From IMG/VR virus record IMGVR_UViG_2537561603_000005: a stretch of 39,099 nucleotides of DNA; one strand, given 5' to 3'. Position 1 is the stretch's first letter. Every line of letters starts with the position of its first letter. This document shows, one piece after another, positions 17,864-35,947 of the stretch. Made by a program: the position numbers and the translations under genes. A model generated the notes under the pieces. The model saw only the letters and a list, made by a program, of their open reading frames with translations, did not search any database and had not been told where the DNA came from. This DNA is from a virus. Lineage: Duplodnaviria; Heunggongvirae; Uroviricota; Caudoviricetes.

Positions 17864-18988
17864 ATGAAGACGAAAAACACGCCCAAACTTGCTTATGCCA
17901 TTCTGAATGCCATCAGCCTGTCCGCAGACGGGGACGGTGACTGGTGTCAGATCATGCCAGCCGGTCGGGTAAAGGCCCGTGACGGTCGCCCGGAAAAACC
18001 GGCGGAAGGCTGGCTGATTAACCATGCGGCCGTTGAGCGCATGGTATCCGGGGTTGTGGCACTCAATCAGCCGGTGAAGATTGACTATAACCACCAGTCA
18101 CTGATTGAGGGACATGCGGCACCGGCTGCCGGTTTTGTCATGGCCTCGCCGGAGAACTTCCGTTTCAGTGAAGAGCGTGGTTTTGAAGTGCGTCCGAAGT
18201 GGAACCCTCCGGCCATTGAACACCTGCGCAATAACGAATTTCCCTGGTTTTCCCCGGTGATTGGTTATGACGAGAGCACCGGCGAACCTGTCGAACTTCG
18301 GATGCTGGCTATTACCGGTGACCCCGGTCTGACCGGCATGAATCCTGTCGCCGCACTGTCGGCGGATGACCTTTATAACGCCTTAAACCCTCCTTTAAAG
18401 GACACCTCCATGAATGAGCAATTACGCCAGTTGCTGACGGCGCTCGGTCTGACCGTGGCCGACGGTGACGAATTTACACCGGAACTGGGCACGGCGGCGC
18501 TGTCTGCCCTTACCGGGATCAAAACCCGTGCGGATGCGCACGACACCCTGAAAACGCAGGTTGCCAGCCTGTCGGCAGAGCTGGAAACCGCAAAAGGCAC
18601 ACCAACTGGCGGCACTATTGATCTGACGAAATACGTGCCGGTTGAGACGTATAACGCCCTGCGTACCGAATATGCCGCGCTGTCGGCACAACACGGCAGC
18701 ACCACGCTGGAGCAGTTGCTGGATAAGGCCGAGTCCGAAGGACGCATTTTCAAAAGCGAACGCGGATACATGGAAGGACTCGGACAACAGATTGGCGTCG
18801 CGGCACTTTCTGCACAGCTTGACGCCCGCCAGCCGGTTGCGGCTCTGACCACTCTTCAGACCGACACCGTAACCGTGCCGGATAAAAAGACCGCCACCGC
18901 TGTGCTGTCGGCTGAAGATATCGCCGCCGCACGTCTGCTGGGTAAAACCGAAGCCGAGTTCCTGAAAATGAAAGAGGAAATGCAATAA
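17864..18988 (+). CDS. I: head protease / scaffold protein I (Mu gp32-like)
   Basis: 374 aa immediately upstream of the major capsid gene; Ala/Leu-rich helical C-terminal half typical of scaffold. Confidence 0.75.
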   Translation: MKTKNTPKLAYAILNAISLSADGDGDWCQIMPAGRVKARDGRPEKPAEGWLINHAAVERMVSGVVALNQPVKIDYNHQSLIEGHAAPAAGFVMASPENFRFSEERGFEVRPKWNPPAIEHLRNNEFPWFSPVIGYDESTGEPVELRMLAITGDPGLTGMNPVAALSADDLYNALNPPLKDTSMNEQLRQLLTALGLTVADGDEFTPELGTAALSALTGIKTRADAHDTLKTQVASLSAELETAKGTPTGGTIDLTKYVPVETYNALRTEYAALSAQHGSTTLEQLLDKAESEGRIFKSERGYMEGLGQQIGVAALSAQLDARQPVAALTTLQTDTVTVPDKKTATAVLSAEDIAAARLLGKTEAEFLKMKEEMQ

Positions 18989-19935
18989 TGCCTACCCCGA
19001 TTACACCGGCGATGATCACCGCCCTGATGACGGGCTACCGTTCTGATTTTCAGGCCGGGATGTCCATGGCTCCGTCGCAGTACCAGAAAATTGCGATGAC
19101 CGTGCCGTCCACGTCGAAATCCAACACCTACGGCTGGCTGGGGCAGTTCCCGCAGTTCCGTGAGTGGATCGGCTCCCGCGTCATCGAGAAGATGAAAGCC
19201 TATGGCTACGCCATCGTGAACAAAACCTTTGAAGGCACCGTTGCCATTAGCCGCGATGACTTTGAAGACGACAATCTCGGCATCTACTCCCCGTTATTCC
19301 AGGAAATGGGTCGTGCCGCTGCGGCACAACCGGATGAACTGGTCTTTGCTGCACTGCGTGATGGTCTGAATGCGGCCTGCTATGACGGCCAGAACTTCTT
19401 TGATACCGAACACCCTGTTTACCCCAAAGTGGATGGCTCCGGTGATGCACAGATGGTCAGCAATATGTTTGTGGCAAAAACCGGCTCTGTCGGTGCACAG
19501 GCGGATTACAGCGGCCCGGCCTGGTATCTGCTTGACTGCTCCCGCGCGGTAAAACCGCTGATTTATCAGGATCGCCGCAAGGCCGAACTGGTTGCCCAGA
19601 CAAAAGTCGATGAAGGCCGTGCGTTTACTGATAACGAGTTTGTGTTCGGTGCTTCCGCCCGTCGCAATGTGGGCTACGGCTTCTGGCAGATGGCCTACAT
19701 GATGCAGTCACCGCTGACGCTGGATGCGCTGTGGCACGGCTGGTCAGCCATGCGTGACTTTAAGGCTGACGGTGGCCGCAAACTCGGCATCAAACCAACC
19801 CATATTGTTGTCCCCACCTCGCTGGAAAAACAGGCGGTGCAGCTGCTGGAGCGCGAGCTGTTCGCGGACGGTAACACCACCGTCTCTAACGAGATGAAGG
19901 GCAAGCTGGAGCTGGTTGTCGCGGATTATCTGTAA
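18988..19935 (+). CDS. T: major capsid protein T (Mu gp34-like)
   Basis: 315 aa, start ATG overlaps I stop (TAATG); followed by a GC hairpin; gene order. Confidence 0.8.
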   Translation: MPTPITPAMITALMTGYRSDFQAGMSMAPSQYQKIAMTVPSTSKSNTYGWLGQFPQFREWIGSRVIEKMKAYGYAIVNKTFEGTVAISRDDFEDDNLGIYSPLFQEMGRAAAAQPDELVFAALRDGLNAACYDGQNFFDTEHPVYPKVDGSGDAQMVSNMFVAKTGSVGAQADYSGPAWYLLDCSRAVKPLIYQDRRKAELVAQTKVDEGRAFTDNEFVFGASARRNVGYGFWQMAYMMQSPLTLDALWHGWSAMRDFKADGGRKLGIKPTHIVVPTSLEKQAVQLLERELFADGNTTVSNEMKGKLELVVADYL

Positions 19936-19978: not shown

Positions 19979-20368
19979 ATGAATGAACATCACACTGTGG
20001 CAGCAACAGATGATTCAGGTCTTCGGGTCAGTGGTGACAATCCTGTCACGGTACTGGCAGAAGTGCGTTGCAGTCGTATGCAGTTTCGTCGTGCGGGGTT
20101 CCTGTTCATGCGGGGACGCCAGCAGGTTGACGTCACCCCGGAGCAGCTTGCCCGACTGGAAGCGGAGCCATGCCTCACTGTACGAATACTACAGACGCCT
20201 GGTGATGATGCGGGAGCCGTGGCGGGTGTGGTTCATGCAGCGACCGGTACAGATTTAGCCGAAGCCGAAGCCGAAGCCGAAGCCGAAGCCGAAGCCGAAG
20301 CCGGACAGGATGCTCCCCGGAAAAAGACCGGCAATAAAGCCAGACAGGAAAAAAAGGCGCGCGCATGA
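19979..20368 (+). CDS. hypothetical head-region protein with (Ala-Glu)n repeat
   Basis: 129-aa ORF containing AEAEAEAEAEAEAEA encoded by a GCCGAA hexanucleotide array. Confidence 0.5.
   Translation: MNEHHTVAATDDSGLRVSGDNPVTVLAEVRCSRMQFRRAGFLFMRGRQQVDVTPEQLARLEAEPCLTVRILQTPGDDAGAVAGVVHAATGTDLAEAEAEAEAEAEAEAGQDAPRKKTGNKARQEKKARA
20258..20302. repeat. hexanucleotide tandem repeat (GCCGAA)x7 inside a CDS
   Basis: Seven contiguous GCCGAA units plus a partial unit, in frame. Confidence 0.9.
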
Positions 20369-20784
20369 ATTACGCCACCGAAACCGATATGCGGGCACGT
20401 TACCGCGAGGATTTGCTCCGGCCGTTACTGGCTGTGCCCCGTTCGGATGAACCGGACACGCGCAAGCTGAACCGGGCACTGACAGATGCGTCAGCCCTTA
20501 TCGACAGCTACCTGTCTGCCCGTTACACGCTGCCGCTGGCGGTGGTTCCGGCGGTCCTTGTTCAGCACTGCTGCACGATTGCCTTTTATTACCTGTGCGA
20601 TCAGCGGGCATCCGATCAGGCGCGTGACCGTTACCGTGAGGCGCTGACATGGCTGAAAAACGTCATGAACGGCAATGTGCCGGTCGGCGTGGATACCGAC
20701 GGTGCGGCCCCTGAATCCGGGGATTTACCGCAGGTGCAGTCTGATGCGGCGGTGTTCGGGCGCAACCAGAAGGGCTTTATATGA
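20365..20784 (+). CDS. Mu gp36-like head-tail region protein
   Basis: 139 aa, overlapping start/stop with neighbours; position in Mu order. Confidence 0.55.
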   Translation: MNYATETDMRARYREDLLRPLLAVPRSDEPDTRKLNRALTDASALIDSYLSARYTLPLAVVPAVLVQHCCTIAFYYLCDQRASDQARDRYREALTWLKNVMNGNVPVGVDTDGAAPESGDLPQVQSDAAVFGRNQKGFI

Positions 20785-21344
20785 TTACGGAAACCGAACA
20801 GGCATATATCGCCCGCATCCGTGAGTATTTCGGGAATGAACTGGTGTCCGTTGACACACATCCCGGCGACTGGAGCGACAGCGTGCTGCGCACCATGCTG
20901 ATTAACGCCCCGGCTATCTATGTTGCCTGGCTGGGTGCAGGTGAAGGGCGTACCCGTGGGCGTCTGGTCAGTCACTGGGTGTTCTACGTCATCGGCGACA
21001 TGCTCAATGGCCGTGAGGTCAGCCGTCCCGGACTTTATCAGATTGTGGCCCGCCTGATTGCCGTACTGAACGGCTTCAGAACCGAAAAAACCTCACCGCT
21101 TTACTTTGAAAAGGCGGTTAACGGTTACACCGAAACGCAGGCAGACAGCGGAGCCGTGATGTACGCCCTTTATTTCTCATCCGAGGAAATGATTGACCCG
21201 CTGACGGATATCAGCTCACTGGATGATTTCCTGCGCCATTACGAAACCTTTACCGAACCGGAAGGCACACCGGAATTTAAGGCACACATCCGTCTGCCTG
21301 GTGCAACTGCCGCCGGTGAAAACGCCGGACTGTCAGAGGAATAA
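20781..21344 (+). CDS. Mu gp37-like protein
   Basis: 187 aa, ATGA overlap with upstream gene; gene order. Confidence 0.55.
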   Translation: MITETEQAYIARIREYFGNELVSVDTHPGDWSDSVLRTMLINAPAIYVAWLGAGEGRTRGRLVSHWVFYVIGDMLNGREVSRPGLYQIVARLIAVLNGFRTEKTSPLYFEKAVNGYTETQADSGAVMYALYFSSEEMIDPLTDISSLDDFLRHYETFTEPEGTPEFKAHIRLPGATAAGENAGLSEE

Positions 21345-21347
21345 CAG

Positions 21348-21626
21348 ATGACAACCATTTTTATTAAACCTGCGCCGGGATGCCTGATTCGCGATCCCGA
21401 CACGATGACTCCGCTCTCACAGGACGGTGAAGAGAAACCCTTCACTCCGTTCTGGTGCCGCCGTCTTAATGATGGCGACGTCATTGTGGTGGATAAAACG
21501 GCGGAGCCTGCCCCGGCTGCCACAACAGGTAATACCGGCGAGGCTGCAAAACCAGCGGGAGCGGCAGCAGAAAAACCTGCGGCGGCGGCTGAAAAACCCG
21601 CAGCATCAGACAAGGGGACTTCCTGA
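21348..21626 (+). CDS. Mu gp38-like protein with Ala/Pro/Lys-rich C-terminus
   Basis: 92 aa; C-terminal AAAEKPAAAAEKPAA repeat; immediately upstream of the sheath gene. Confidence 0.5.
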   Translation: MTTIFIKPAPGCLIRDPDTMTPLSQDGEEKPFTPFWCRRLNDGDVIVVDKTAEPAPAATTGNTGEAAKPAGAAAEKPAAAAEKPAASDKGTS

Positions 21627-23107
21627 TGATTAACTTTGATAACATCGGCGATAACAATCGTATTCCGCTGGTACAGATTGAAATCAATAACTCAATGGCC
21701 GTGACCGGCACGCCGCCGCAGCGTCAGGCGGTGCTGTTGTTTGGTCAGCGAAACCGTAATGCGTTCGGTGCCGTGGATTCTCCTGTCCGTATCACCCGCG
21801 CGTCTCAGGCAACAGAACTCTGGGGGCGTGGCTCCATGATTGCGCAGATGGTGGCAGCGTTTATTGCCATTAACCCTGATACGGAACTGTACGGCATTGC
21901 TCAGGGGGAAGGCACCGGCACGGCCACGTCCGGCACCATCACGCTTTCCGGTACGGCAACGGAAGACAATGTACTGAATCTCTATGTTGCCGGGCGTCCT
22001 TACCGTCTGGCCGTCAGCAAAGGCAAACCGGGCAATCTCCTGGCGGATGCGCTTGCCGCGATGATTAACGCTGACCAGGACAGTCCGGTGAGTGCGAGTA
22101 CTTCCGTCCCTGCGGATAATCAGGATCAGACCAAAAAAGTGATCACCCTGGCGGCGAAATTTACCGGCGAATGCTCCGTGCATGATATCCGGCTGAATTA
22201 TTATTCCGGTGAAGTGACACCTGCCGGGCTTGTGGTGTCGGTTGCCGGTGGCACCGCGCCGAAAAACCCGGATATTACCAACAGCATCGCTGCCATGGGG
22301 ACGCGCCAGTATAACTATATTGTGATGCCCTATAAGGATGCGGCGAATCTCAAAATTCTGGCGGAAGAACTGCTGAAACGCTGGGGACCGGTAAAAATGT
22401 CAGACGGTATGGTCTGGATGGCGCATACCGGCACCTTCGGCACGGCAACCAGTTTTGGTGAGTCCCGTAATGATTTCCTGTTCACCTGTACCTCCATTCC
22501 GAAGGCACCGGAGCCGGATTATGTCTGGGCGGCCTCCATTTGTGCGGTCTGTGCGCCGTCACTGTCTGCCGATCCTGCCCGCCCGCTCCAGACGCTGGCG
22601 TTGCCTGCACGACTGGCCCCGGCAGAATCAGATCGCCTGACACGGGAGGAGCGAAACAGCCTGCTTTATACCGGCATGTCCACGGTGACCGTCGCGGCGG
22701 CTGATGTGGTGCAGATTGAACGTCAGGTGACGATGTACCGTCAGAATGCATACGGCGAAAGCGATCCCAGCTATCTGGATGTGGAAACCATCTACACCCT
22801 GTCATATCTGCGTTATTCACTGCGCACCTTTATCACGCAGCGTTTCCCGCGCCATAAACTGGCCGATAACGGCACCCCCGTCCGGCCCGGTCAGAATATC
22901 GTGACGCCGGAGATCATGACGCTCCAGCTGATTGCGCTGGGGGAAGAATGGGTGGATCTGGGACTGGTCGAAAATCTGGACACCTTTAAAAAGAATCTGC
23001 TCGTGGAGCGCAACACAAAAGACCGTAACCGTCTGGATGTGATGTGTACACCGGATCTGGTTAACCAGTTCCGCTTCATGGCCGCGCAGATCCGTTTCAT
23101 TTTGTGA
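21626..23107 (+). CDS. L: tail sheath protein L
   Basis: 493 aa, followed directly by a ~120-aa tube gene, as in contractile tails. Confidence 0.8.
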   Translation: MINFDNIGDNNRIPLVQIEINNSMAVTGTPPQRQAVLLFGQRNRNAFGAVDSPVRITRASQATELWGRGSMIAQMVAAFIAINPDTELYGIAQGEGTGTATSGTITLSGTATEDNVLNLYVAGRPYRLAVSKGKPGNLLADALAAMINADQDSPVSASTSVPADNQDQTKKVITLAAKFTGECSVHDIRLNYYSGEVTPAGLVVSVAGGTAPKNPDITNSIAAMGTRQYNYIVMPYKDAANLKILAEELLKRWGPVKMSDGMVWMAHTGTFGTATSFGESRNDFLFTCTSIPKAPEPDYVWAASICAVCAPSLSADPARPLQTLALPARLAPAESDRLTREERNSLLYTGMSTVTVAAADVVQIERQVTMYRQNAYGESDPSYLDVETIYTLSYLRYSLRTFITQRFPRHKLADNGTPVRPGQNIVTPEIMTLQLIALGEEWVDLGLVENLDTFKKNLLVERNTKDRNRLDVMCTPDLVNQFRFMAAQIRFIL

Positions 23108-33868: not shown

Positions 33869-35947
33869 ATGTCAGACTCCCAGTGGAAAATGCTCTCCGC
33901 CATGCCCGGAGAGTTTTCAGTCAAGGTTGCCGGTGGCACGGTGGCATTTATTGAAAGTCCTTTCAGGCCTTCGGGTAATAAAGGGGGGATCACCTTCGCA
34001 GACTGTGTGATCCGCTTCAGCACGAAAGAGCCATTATGGGTAATGCCGGTATCCGGCAATCCCAGCGCAGAAATCACCAGTTCAGGCGTGACCGGCATTA
34101 TTCCGATCACATCTGACGTGGCCGGAACACTCACGCCTTCTGACTGGAATGCACCGGATAACGCCGGACCGTCTGGCGGTACAAATGGCAGCAGTACAGA
34201 GCCGGAGTATTACTATGTGCTTCCACTGGCCGGGCAGTCCAACGGGATGGCCTACGGTGAAGGGCTTCCGCTACCGGCTTCATTCGACCGCCCTGAACCG
34301 CGCATTAAGCAACTGGCACGTCGCAGCACGGTAACGCCAGATGGTACGTCGTGCACATATAACGACATCATTCCCGCAGACCACTGCCTGCATGATGTGC
34401 AGGACATGAGCGGGATAAACCACCCGAAAGCTGATCTGGCAAAAGGCCAGTACGGGACTGTCGGTCAGGGGCTGCATATTGCCAAAAAACTGCTGCCTTA
34501 CATCCCGCAGAATGCCGGGATACTTCTGGTGCCCTGTTGCCGTGGCGGGTCAGCATTCACCACCGGGGATGACGGCTCATTCAGTGAGGCCAGCGGTGCT
34601 TCCGCTGATTCTTCACGCTGGGGTGCCGGTAAACCCCTGTATCAGGACCTGGTAAGCCGCACCAGAGCGGCGCTGGCGAAGAACCCGAAAAACAAACTTC
34701 TGGCCGTGGTATGGATGCAGGGAGAGGCAGACCTTGCATCGGGAAGTCAGCAGCATAATGGTTTATTCACGACCATGGTTCAGCAGTTCAGAACTGACCT
34801 GTCTCCGCTTGCTGCGCAGTGTGTGAGAGGAAATACCACCACGGTGCCGTGGATTTGCGGTGATACCACGTATTACTGGAAAAACCTTGGCACCGATAAA
34901 TATGAGGCAGTATACGGTGGCTACAAAGGCAAGGAAGCACAGAAAATTTTCTTTGTACCGTTCCTGACGGATGAGAATGGACAGAACACGCCAACGAATG
35001 CTCCGGCGGAAGACCCGGATATTGTGGCTGTCGGGTATTACGGTGCGGCATCCCGTACCCAGGGCAGTTTTGTCTCCACACAGCGTGACAGCCATTTCAG
35101 CTCATGGGCACGCAGGGGCATCATTTCTGACCGTCTGGCCTCAGCCATTCTGCTCCATGCGGGACGCACACCTGAAGTGATGCAGGGACCGGTTGTGACA
35201 CAGCCGGATGAAAAACCATCACCTGACACGCCATCAACACCATCGCCGGATACACCCTCCACACCACCGGCTGACACCACGACGATGAGCACCCTGTTTG
35301 CTTACCGGGCATCAGAGTCTGAAGGACAGCTGGCACCACAGGGCTGGACTGCCGGAGGCGGTAAGGCCCAAATCGTGGATGATGCCGGAGCAGGTAGTGG
35401 TAAGGCCATGAAACTGACCAAGGAAACAGGCAAATCCTCCTGGTACCTTGAGCATGATGCCGGTAATGGTGCGGACCTGCTGGGTAAAGGTGGCCTTGTC
35501 AGTTGCCGGTTTAAGGTTGATGGTGCGCTTACGGCTAATCAGTACGCGATGGCGCTGTACTGGCCGGTTTCTGCCCTGCCGCAAGGGGTTACTCTGGAAG
35601 GTAATGCCGGTCATAACCTGCTGGCATCGTTTTACGTTCAGAGCGATGCCACAGACCTTAACGTGATGTACCACAAGGGCAATACGGCGCAAAACACGAA
35701 ACTGGGGTCATTCGGTGCATTTAATAACGAATGGCATACGCTGGGCTTCCGTTTTGCCGGTAACAACAGTATTGAGGTGACGCCGGTCATTGATGGTAAG
35801 GACGGGACACCATTCATGCTGTCGCAGTCTCCGGTCGGCACGTTTACGGCAGACAAGTTGCGCGTGACCGATATCACTAACGGTGCAACATACCCGGTGC
35901 TGATTGACAGCATTGTGGTGGAGGTTAATACCCCGTCAGCGGGATAA
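33869..35947 (+). CDS. SGNH/SASA-type carbohydrate esterase-like protein with Pro/Thr linker and C-terminal lectin-like domain (accessory gene)
   Basis: LPLAGQSNGMAYGE (GQSN esterase motif) about 115 aa from the N-terminus; linker PDEKPSPDTPSTPSPDTPSTPPADTT; beta-rich C-terminal domain. Confidence 0.55.
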   Translation: MSDSQWKMLSAMPGEFSVKVAGGTVAFIESPFRPSGNKGGITFADCVIRFSTKEPLWVMPVSGNPSAEITSSGVTGIIPITSDVAGTLTPSDWNAPDNAGPSGGTNGSSTEPEYYYVLPLAGQSNGMAYGEGLPLPASFDRPEPRIKQLARRSTVTPDGTSCTYNDIIPADHCLHDVQDMSGINHPKADLAKGQYGTVGQGLHIAKKLLPYIPQNAGILLVPCCRGGSAFTTGDDGSFSEASGASADSSRWGAGKPLYQDLVSRTRAALAKNPKNKLLAVVWMQGEADLASGSQQHNGLFTTMVQQFRTDLSPLAAQCVRGNTTTVPWICGDTTYYWKNLGTDKYEAVYGGYKGKEAQKIFFVPFLTDENGQNTPTNAPAEDPDIVAVGYYGAASRTQGSFVSTQRDSHFSSWARRGIISDRLASAILLHAGRTPEVMQGPVVTQPDEKPSPDTPSTPSPDTPSTPPADTTTMSTLFAYRASESEGQLAPQGWTAGGGKAQIVDDAGAGSGKAMKLTKETGKSSWYLEHDAGNGADLLGKGGLVSCRFKVDGALTANQYAMALYWPVSALPQGVTLEGNAGHNLLASFYVQSDATDLNVMYHKGNTAQNTKLGSFGAFNNEWHTLGFRFAGNNSIEVTPVIDGKDGTPFMLSQSPVGTFTADKLRVTDITNGATYPVLIDSIVVEVNTPSAG

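Follow-up and report, generated by a model that had tools for sequence, protein, structure and literature searches.

A length-variable hexanucleotide array in the gp35/HI1506-type gene of a Mu-like prophage

In this study, we examined a run of perfect GCCGAA units in a head-region gene of a Mu-like prophage and found that the number of units differs widely among related prophages of Escherichia coli, even where the surrounding DNA is identical. We propose that (GCCGAA)n, situated in a predicted disordered spacer of an Sp18-like Mu-like prophage, is a coding microsatellite (VNTR) prone to slippage and that its variation is near-neutral, a reading to which we assign a probability of roughly 0.8. 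The length-variable site is genuine but is an ordinary kind of hypervariable site, and its value is mainly that of a typing marker.

The array and the gene that carries it

The DNA analysed here, hereafter the window, is a stretch of 39,099 nucleotides (IMG/VR record IMGVR_UViG_2537561603_000005) and contains a complete Mu-like prophage, with the gene for transposase A at 267-2369; likeness to other prophages stops at about 38.3 kb and ordinary E. coli-like chromosome follows thereafter. A direct read of the sequence gives seven perfect GCCGAA units at 20258-20299 on the plus strand, and Tandem Repeats Finder reports 20257-20303 with a period of 6, 7.8 copies, 100% matches and a score of 94; the in-frame (Ala-Glu)7 hexamer repeat claimed in the preliminary description of this DNA is borne out by both. 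Chance does not account for the array: across 200 dinucleotide-preserving shuffles the longest period-6 self-match averaged 13.6 nt and never exceeded 17, whereas it reaches 47 nt in the window. In the reading frame of the gene the array corresponds to A94-E107, that is (AE)7, and is followed by A108-G109. The latter two residues come from a terminal variant unit, GCCGGA (20300-20305, plus strand), which is one base off the repeat unit and ends the array in all loci examined. The span previously given for the repeat, 20258-20302, thus has the correct start, whereas its end takes in the GCC of this variant eighth unit. The terminal Ala-Gly unit is itself expanded to (AG)2-4 in some relatives (P0043, P0046, P0050, P0053 and P0055).

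The carrier gene (19979-20368, plus strand) encodes a gp35/HI1506-type protein of 129 aa, an assignment based on the list of open reading frames, the FluMu_N domain, PHROG 3622 and synteny with Mup35 of phage Mu. Pfam FluMu_N matches aa 36-72 with 36.0 bits against a cut-off (gathering score) of 25.8, PHROG 3622 matches the protein over its full length with an E value of 8e-77, and relatives are annotated in RefSeq, in the identical frame, as 'HI1506-related protein'. Because of these three lines of evidence we take this frame to be the real one. Minus-strand open reading frames across the repeat (20175-20366, RLRL...; 20255-20479, GFGF...) are without such support and were dismissed as by-products of the repeat, as were those in other frames. 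As had been noted before, the gene stands after the major capsid gene, here gpT at 18988-19935 on the plus strand (Pfam Mu-like_gpT, E 3.5e-119; PHROG 371, major head protein). On its other side, the stop codon TGA (20366-20368) shares an ATGA overlap at 20365-20368 with the start codon ATG (20365-20367) of the gp36 adaptor gene, which occupies 20365-20784 on the same strand (Pfam Phage_Mu_Gp36, E 1.6e-35). This 4-nt overlap with gp36 is annotated in every fetched relative regardless of array length. The repeat is located 60 nt before the gp36 start, which is translationally coupled.

Further genes of the module are MuF (15762-17087), a gpG-like gene (17144-17686) and the gpI protease/scaffold gene (17864-18988) on the upstream side, and gp37 (20781-21344), the DUF2635 (gp38) gene (21348-21626) and the sheath gene (21626-23107) on the downstream side. 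Several other sites in the window deserve mention in their own right. In many related prophages (L001, L002 and others, at 116-195) RefSeq annotates an 80-nt minus-strand 'tRNA-OTHER' between MuF and gpG, and at this position the MuF-gpG intergenic stretch of the window (17088-17143) holds the T-arm-like sequence GGTGGGGGTCGAACCCAC. ARAGORN found no tRNA in the window and Rfam returned nothing; the intergenic element may be what remains of a degenerate tRNA-like sequence. A non-coding gap of 177 nt (17687-17863) separates the gpG-like gene from gpI, at the place where the phage Mu record has a 'gyrase cut site' (G-I), and by analogy this gap could be the counterpart of the Mu gyrase cut site. 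The DUF2635/gp38 gene has an Ala/Pro/Lys-rich tail (21500-21626) with the near-repeat AAEKPAAAAEKPAA; in relatives its length is 231, 246 or 279 nt and the tails differ, so that it represents a second variable low-complexity tail of the module. Finally, an imperfect 24-nt tandem repeat with 2.2 copies and a 78% match is present at 35215-35266, within a 692-aa open reading frame (33869-35947) in the tail-fibre region.

Array length among related prophages

Among 5,426 complete E. coli genomes searched by megablast, 228 carry the gene, at 319 places and with up to 4 copies per genome. When match spans were converted to units, a conversion that was verified on two sequenced loci (L013 and L014), 16 allele sizes between 1 and 17 units were obtained from 69 E. 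coli complete-genome records, and the differences in span between alleles were always exact multiples of 6 nt. The preliminary description had predicted a length-variable site and suggested a comparison of copy number among related prophages; the prediction holds, and the counts are clearly far from identical everywhere. In 17 fetched E. coli loci that were read directly, arrays of 1, 10, 11, 12, 13, 14, 16 and 17 pure GCCGAA units were present, and one further array has 17 units, two of which are GTCGAA. In IMG/VR, a scan by protein pattern was swamped by AEAEAEAE and confirmed only 6 loci; a DNA anchor in the right flank was used instead, and with it 17 IMG/VR and 15 metagenome stretches were recovered, in which the array, read directly in about 30 loci, has 1-14 units. 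All sequenced alleles translate to a full-length protein.

The long arrays consist of pure GCCGAA, and long pure arrays are a signature of recent unit turnover. Expansions are seen in at least three sub-lineages that are distinguished by their left flanks (...CCTGTACAGATTTA, ...CCGGTACAGATTTA and ...CCGGTGCAGATTTA), while one-unit alleles dominate a whole sub-lineage. Variant units have been duplicated as well, as seen for GCCGAA-GTCGAA, which occurs twice in L003, and for (AG)n in several proteins. The closest comparison is provided by four O157-type loci, those of 20R2R, 117, 119 and 143 (L011, L055, L054 and L013), which have 10, 13, 14 and 16 units, respectively, and show 0 differences over 6,079 bp of flank; the genomes of 117, 119 and 143 have the accessions CP028668, CP028662 and CP028607. 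Likewise, the loci of FORC_028, JNEC-KY174, CFIAFB20190167 and JNEC-KY202 (L005-L008) have 16, 11, 12 and 13 units with at most 2 differences over 6,179 bp of flank. Since the flanks are equal and the counts are different, the array must turn over much faster than point substitutions accumulate; this rate argument is confined to sets of flanks of the same length, as an ungapped comparison across sub-lineages inflates the differences through indels. The rate of turnover is not extreme. The strains 380-94 and RV06, the latter a 'culture mutant', both have 12 units with 0 flank differences, and PA20 and 20R2R both have 10; as these two parent/derivative-looking pairs are unchanged, the site is not unstable over a few laboratory passages.

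It could be argued that divergent Mu-like prophages swap segments by homologous recombination and that the array itself is not mutating. This would be in line with the presence of up to 4 gene copies in some genomes and with the mosaicism of flanks between sub-lineages, an example being L056 and L054, which differ in the left flank only. However, the four different counts on four loci without a single flank difference over 6 kb would demand a donor that matches everywhere but in the array, and this merely shifts the question to how the array of the donor had changed. We consider an origin of the alleles by recombination very unlikely.

Many database entries for the protein are labelled 'partial' and stop within the repeat or at its edge (P0058, P0062, P0065, P0069, P0070 and others). 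Short-read contigs evidently break at the array, and copy numbers from draft assemblies are biased to short alleles; the array thus explains the breaks and truncations of short-read assemblies and gene calls at this gene. The same entries that end inside the repeat, together with the fact that tandem repeats can be miscounted by long-read assemblies, could be taken to mean that the counts differ because a low-complexity region was wrongly sequenced or assembled. Against this, the differences are exact multiples of 6 with perfect units and without ragged indels, and the same counts recur in independent records: 2 units in 14 records, 12 units in 380-94 and RV06, and 10 units in PA20 and 20R2R. 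Moreover, the size ladder is repeated in three independent collections, and ordinary reads span arrays of up to 108 nt. It is highly improbable that the variation is an artefact of this kind.

Two unusual entries were encountered in this survey. In P0073, an E. coli protein of 119 aa, the repeat region is read in another frame (…TKPKPKPDEGY…) and is followed by the normal tail, the cause being a frameshift that is compensated further on or an error of sequencing. In P0086/L052, the end of the protein with (AE)n and the basic tail is joined to an unrelated upstream sequence with a precomputed Pfam match to PF00563, and this entry may be a chimera or a misassembly.

Phase variation of the on/off type through frameshifting was considered and is ruled out, as the unit is 6 nt long, no allele is out of frame, and the tail and the overlap with gp36 do not change from allele to allele. 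A different proposal would be that the repeat has its role at the level of DNA or RNA, perhaps by binding proteins as an array or by folding into a structure that regulates gp36 translation, and that the coding of Ala-Glu is incidental. The proximity of the repeat, 60 nt upstream of a translationally coupled start, is what would speak for such an element. However, an Rfam scan of the whole window was negative, arrays of 1 to 17 units occur with an unchanged downstream overlap, and the variant units GTCGAA, GCTGAA and GCCGGA are tolerated; we give hardly any credence to a function at the nucleic acid level.

The gp35-type protein and the variation of its tract

The protein has a folded N-terminal core and a C-terminal half that is predicted to be disordered. 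An AlphaFold2 model, built on a shallow alignment of 11 sequences and with a mean pLDDT of 63.5, has a core with pLDDT 87-90 over aa 21-70 that consists of four strands, a helix and a fifth strand. The core as a whole extends over aa ~21-75 (20039-20203, plus strand), contains the FluMu_N domain at 20084-20194 and is also delineated by Foldseek, phmmer and BLASTP. The model has no secondary structure past aa 72, a pLDDT below 50 at aa 77-111 and block means of 39-50 over aa 81-129, which include the AE tract and the tail. The core is followed by a Gly/Ala/Val-rich linker (aa 76-93, DDAGAVAGVVHAATGTDL; 20204-20257, plus strand), which is predicted to be disordered and whose sequence is kept in close relatives; in the two-domain relatives P0084 and P0087 the homologous stretch stands before their C-terminal domain. 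Beyond the linker, the order in the window protein is '...GVVHAATGTDL', (AE)7, AG and the Lys/Arg-rich C-terminal tail QDAPRKKTGNKARQEKKARA (aa 110-129; 20306-20365, plus strand), likewise predicted to be disordered. This basic tail is conserved after the array in relatives, among which a shorter ...NKAEQARA variant also occurs. The poly(Ala-Glu) stretch is disordered in the model and might be helical in context.

The closest structural relative is HI1506 of the Haemophilus prophage FluMu, for which an NMR structure is available (2OUT). In a Foldseek search against the PDB it was the sole significant match (E 8.6e-4, probability 1.00), with a TM score of just 0.35 across the whole chain, a low value because the tail is disordered, and phmmer aligns it over aa 33-90 with an E value of 3.4e-4. 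Mup35 of phage Mu is a protein of 136 aa encoded at the equivalent position, and BLASTP finds 46% identity between it and the window protein over aa 23-63 only, the alignment ending at aa 63. The N-terminal FluMu_N domain (PF17891) and its fold are common to Mu gp35, HI1506 and the window protein, and in Mu the gp35 gene is flanked by the major head gene T and the adaptor gene gp36, just as in the window. However, Mu gp35, the Edwardsiella homologue and the majority of the distant relatives have a folded C-terminal domain of ~50 aa with the motif ...RIRDAVAxLDKDNPxHFT..GKPxV.AV..LG..V..QIDAAL, and this is missing from the window protein, which has (AE)n and the basic tail instead. Its place in the family is thus indicated by the N-domain score, the N-domain fold and the gpT-gp36 synteny, but not by the C-terminal domain. 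Pfam has no model for the C-terminal domain of Mu gp35, and NCBIfam has none for either the window protein or Mu gp35.

The AE-type protein has a narrow distribution. An exhaustive HMMER search of 1.84 billion representatives gave 14 matches, among which the AE-type forms one 50%-identity cluster only, and the named sources of AE-type proteins are nearly all E. coli, with one Shigella sonnei in addition. No AE-type homologue is present in the GTDB species-representative genomes, in which the alignment-based scan found only the two-domain gene of Edwardsiella anguillarum. The C-terminal part is evidently modular in this family, and the N-domain works with different tails, the tail of P0095, for instance, being coiled-coil-like and Lys-rich. 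Two-domain relatives end in '...IEAALKQDA', and the sequence of the one-unit allele ('...DLAEAGQDA...') is similar to this extreme C-terminus; the comparison covered Mu gp35 (L010:3123-3533), P0084 and P0087. From sequence comparison, this suggests that the AE-type arose when the C-domain was deleted in an ancestor and a GCCGAA/GCCGGA seed was later expanded.

The way in which the array may vary can be outlined as follows, the mechanism and rate of slippage being deduced by comparing strains. Slipped-strand mispairing in the perfect array, during replication of the chromosomal prophage or of the phage, would add or remove 6-nt units, and each step would lead to the gain or loss of one Ala-Glu dipeptide. 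As the tract is located between the FluMu_N domain and the Lys/Arg-rich tail, a change in length would alter only the length of the spacer and its negative charge. The frame is maintained throughout, as are the basic tail and the ATGA overlap with gp36. Array variation would be tolerated because all three are preserved, and with the basic tail and the overlap in every allele translational coupling to gp36 should be unaffected. From what is established on late regulation in Mu, a Mu-type prophage should not express its late genes in the lysogen, and therefore weak selection on tract length is expected during chromosomal replication; the variation is probably near-neutral. Work by Vogler et al. 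in 2006 is said to have found that the mutation rates of O157 VNTRs rise with copy number. A copy-number-dependent rate would fit our observation that arrays of at least 10 units differ on flanks with zero SNPs, as opposed to the sub-lineage dominated by one-unit alleles.

The persistence of the tract and its independent expansion in several sub-lineages could also be compatible with selection. According to this alternative, selection acts on how long the acidic (AE)n spacer is, a property that can be adjusted rapidly. The array would then be a contingency locus of a length type, with no on/off switch, and spacer length, by way of the reach of the basic tail relative to the N-domain or of charge balance, might have consequences for the completion of heads, for DNA retention or for recognition by host defence or immunity systems. 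The wide allele range (1-17), the independent expansions in several flank sub-lineages and the retention of the tract and the conserved basic tail throughout the E. coli group would all agree with such tuning, and since the acidic tract adjoins the basic tail an intramolecular interplay of charges is conceivable. On the other hand, one-unit alleles are common in prophages that otherwise look intact, the gene, part of the late operon, is presumably not expressed in lysogens, where most replication happens, and the allele spectrum resembles an ordinary VNTR ladder. Nor does the virion offer a structural point of reference, as gp35 was not resolved in the cryo-EM study of the Mu virion, in which gp34 was modelled as the sole capsid-shell protein (PMC11915804). 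We regard adaptive tuning as unlikely, and it is equally doubtful that (AE)n is a selected adjustable spacer that has replaced the folded C-domain in a truncated gp35 and forms a length-type contingency locus within a structural module. Were this so, tract length would set the reach or strength of the basic tail, with packaged DNA or the portal/adaptor region as conceivable targets, and prophage populations would carry a ladder of virion-assembly variants.

Whether or not selection plays a part, the alleles demonstrate that a gp35-family protein can accommodate C-terminal halves that differ by as many as 32 residues and 16 charges. It is an argument for placing the conserved activity in the FluMu_N domain and perhaps in the basic tail, and the alleles provide natural length variants with which the role of Mu gp35 can be studied.

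Comparison with known repeat systems

The array can be compared with two groups of bacterial repeats; in a literature search for hexamer repeats, O157 MLVA, VNTRs of Mu-like or Sp18 prophages and HI1506, no paper on this particular locus was found. The tetranucleotide contingency loci of Haemophilus and Neisseria are, like the array described here, perfect short tandem repeats in coding sequence for which slipped-strand mispairing is the presumed mechanism. In contrast to these, however, the unit here is a multiple of three, so that no frameshift and no on/off switching result, and the observed alleles keep the full open reading frame.

A much closer likeness is found to the hexamer VNTRs used for MLVA of EHEC and E. 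coli O157:H7 (PulseNet O157-3, -9, -17, -19, -25 and -37; the EH* and EHC-* loci of Izumiya 2010). These also have a 6-bp unit in frame within an open reading frame, range from ~1 to ~17 copies and vary among near-identical isolates, and the locus is missing where the mobile element is missing, as reflected here by the presence of the gene in 228 of 5,426 complete genomes. The present array is distinct in that its carrier is a Mu-like prophage of variable presence and in that one genome may hold several copies of it. One of the named loci, EHC-5, is lacking from the majority of O157 strains, and its quartile values reach 2, 7 and 10 repeats in those that have it (PMC10062581); this pattern is suggestive of, and compatible with, a prophage-borne locus like the array described here, the likeness being one of presence and copy-number pattern. 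As a highly discriminating prophage-borne marker, the array splits O157-type E. coli isolates whose surrounding 6 kb are identical. It involves no new mechanism and is, functionally, a repeat of the same kind as the hexanucleotide VNTRs of EHEC MLVA.
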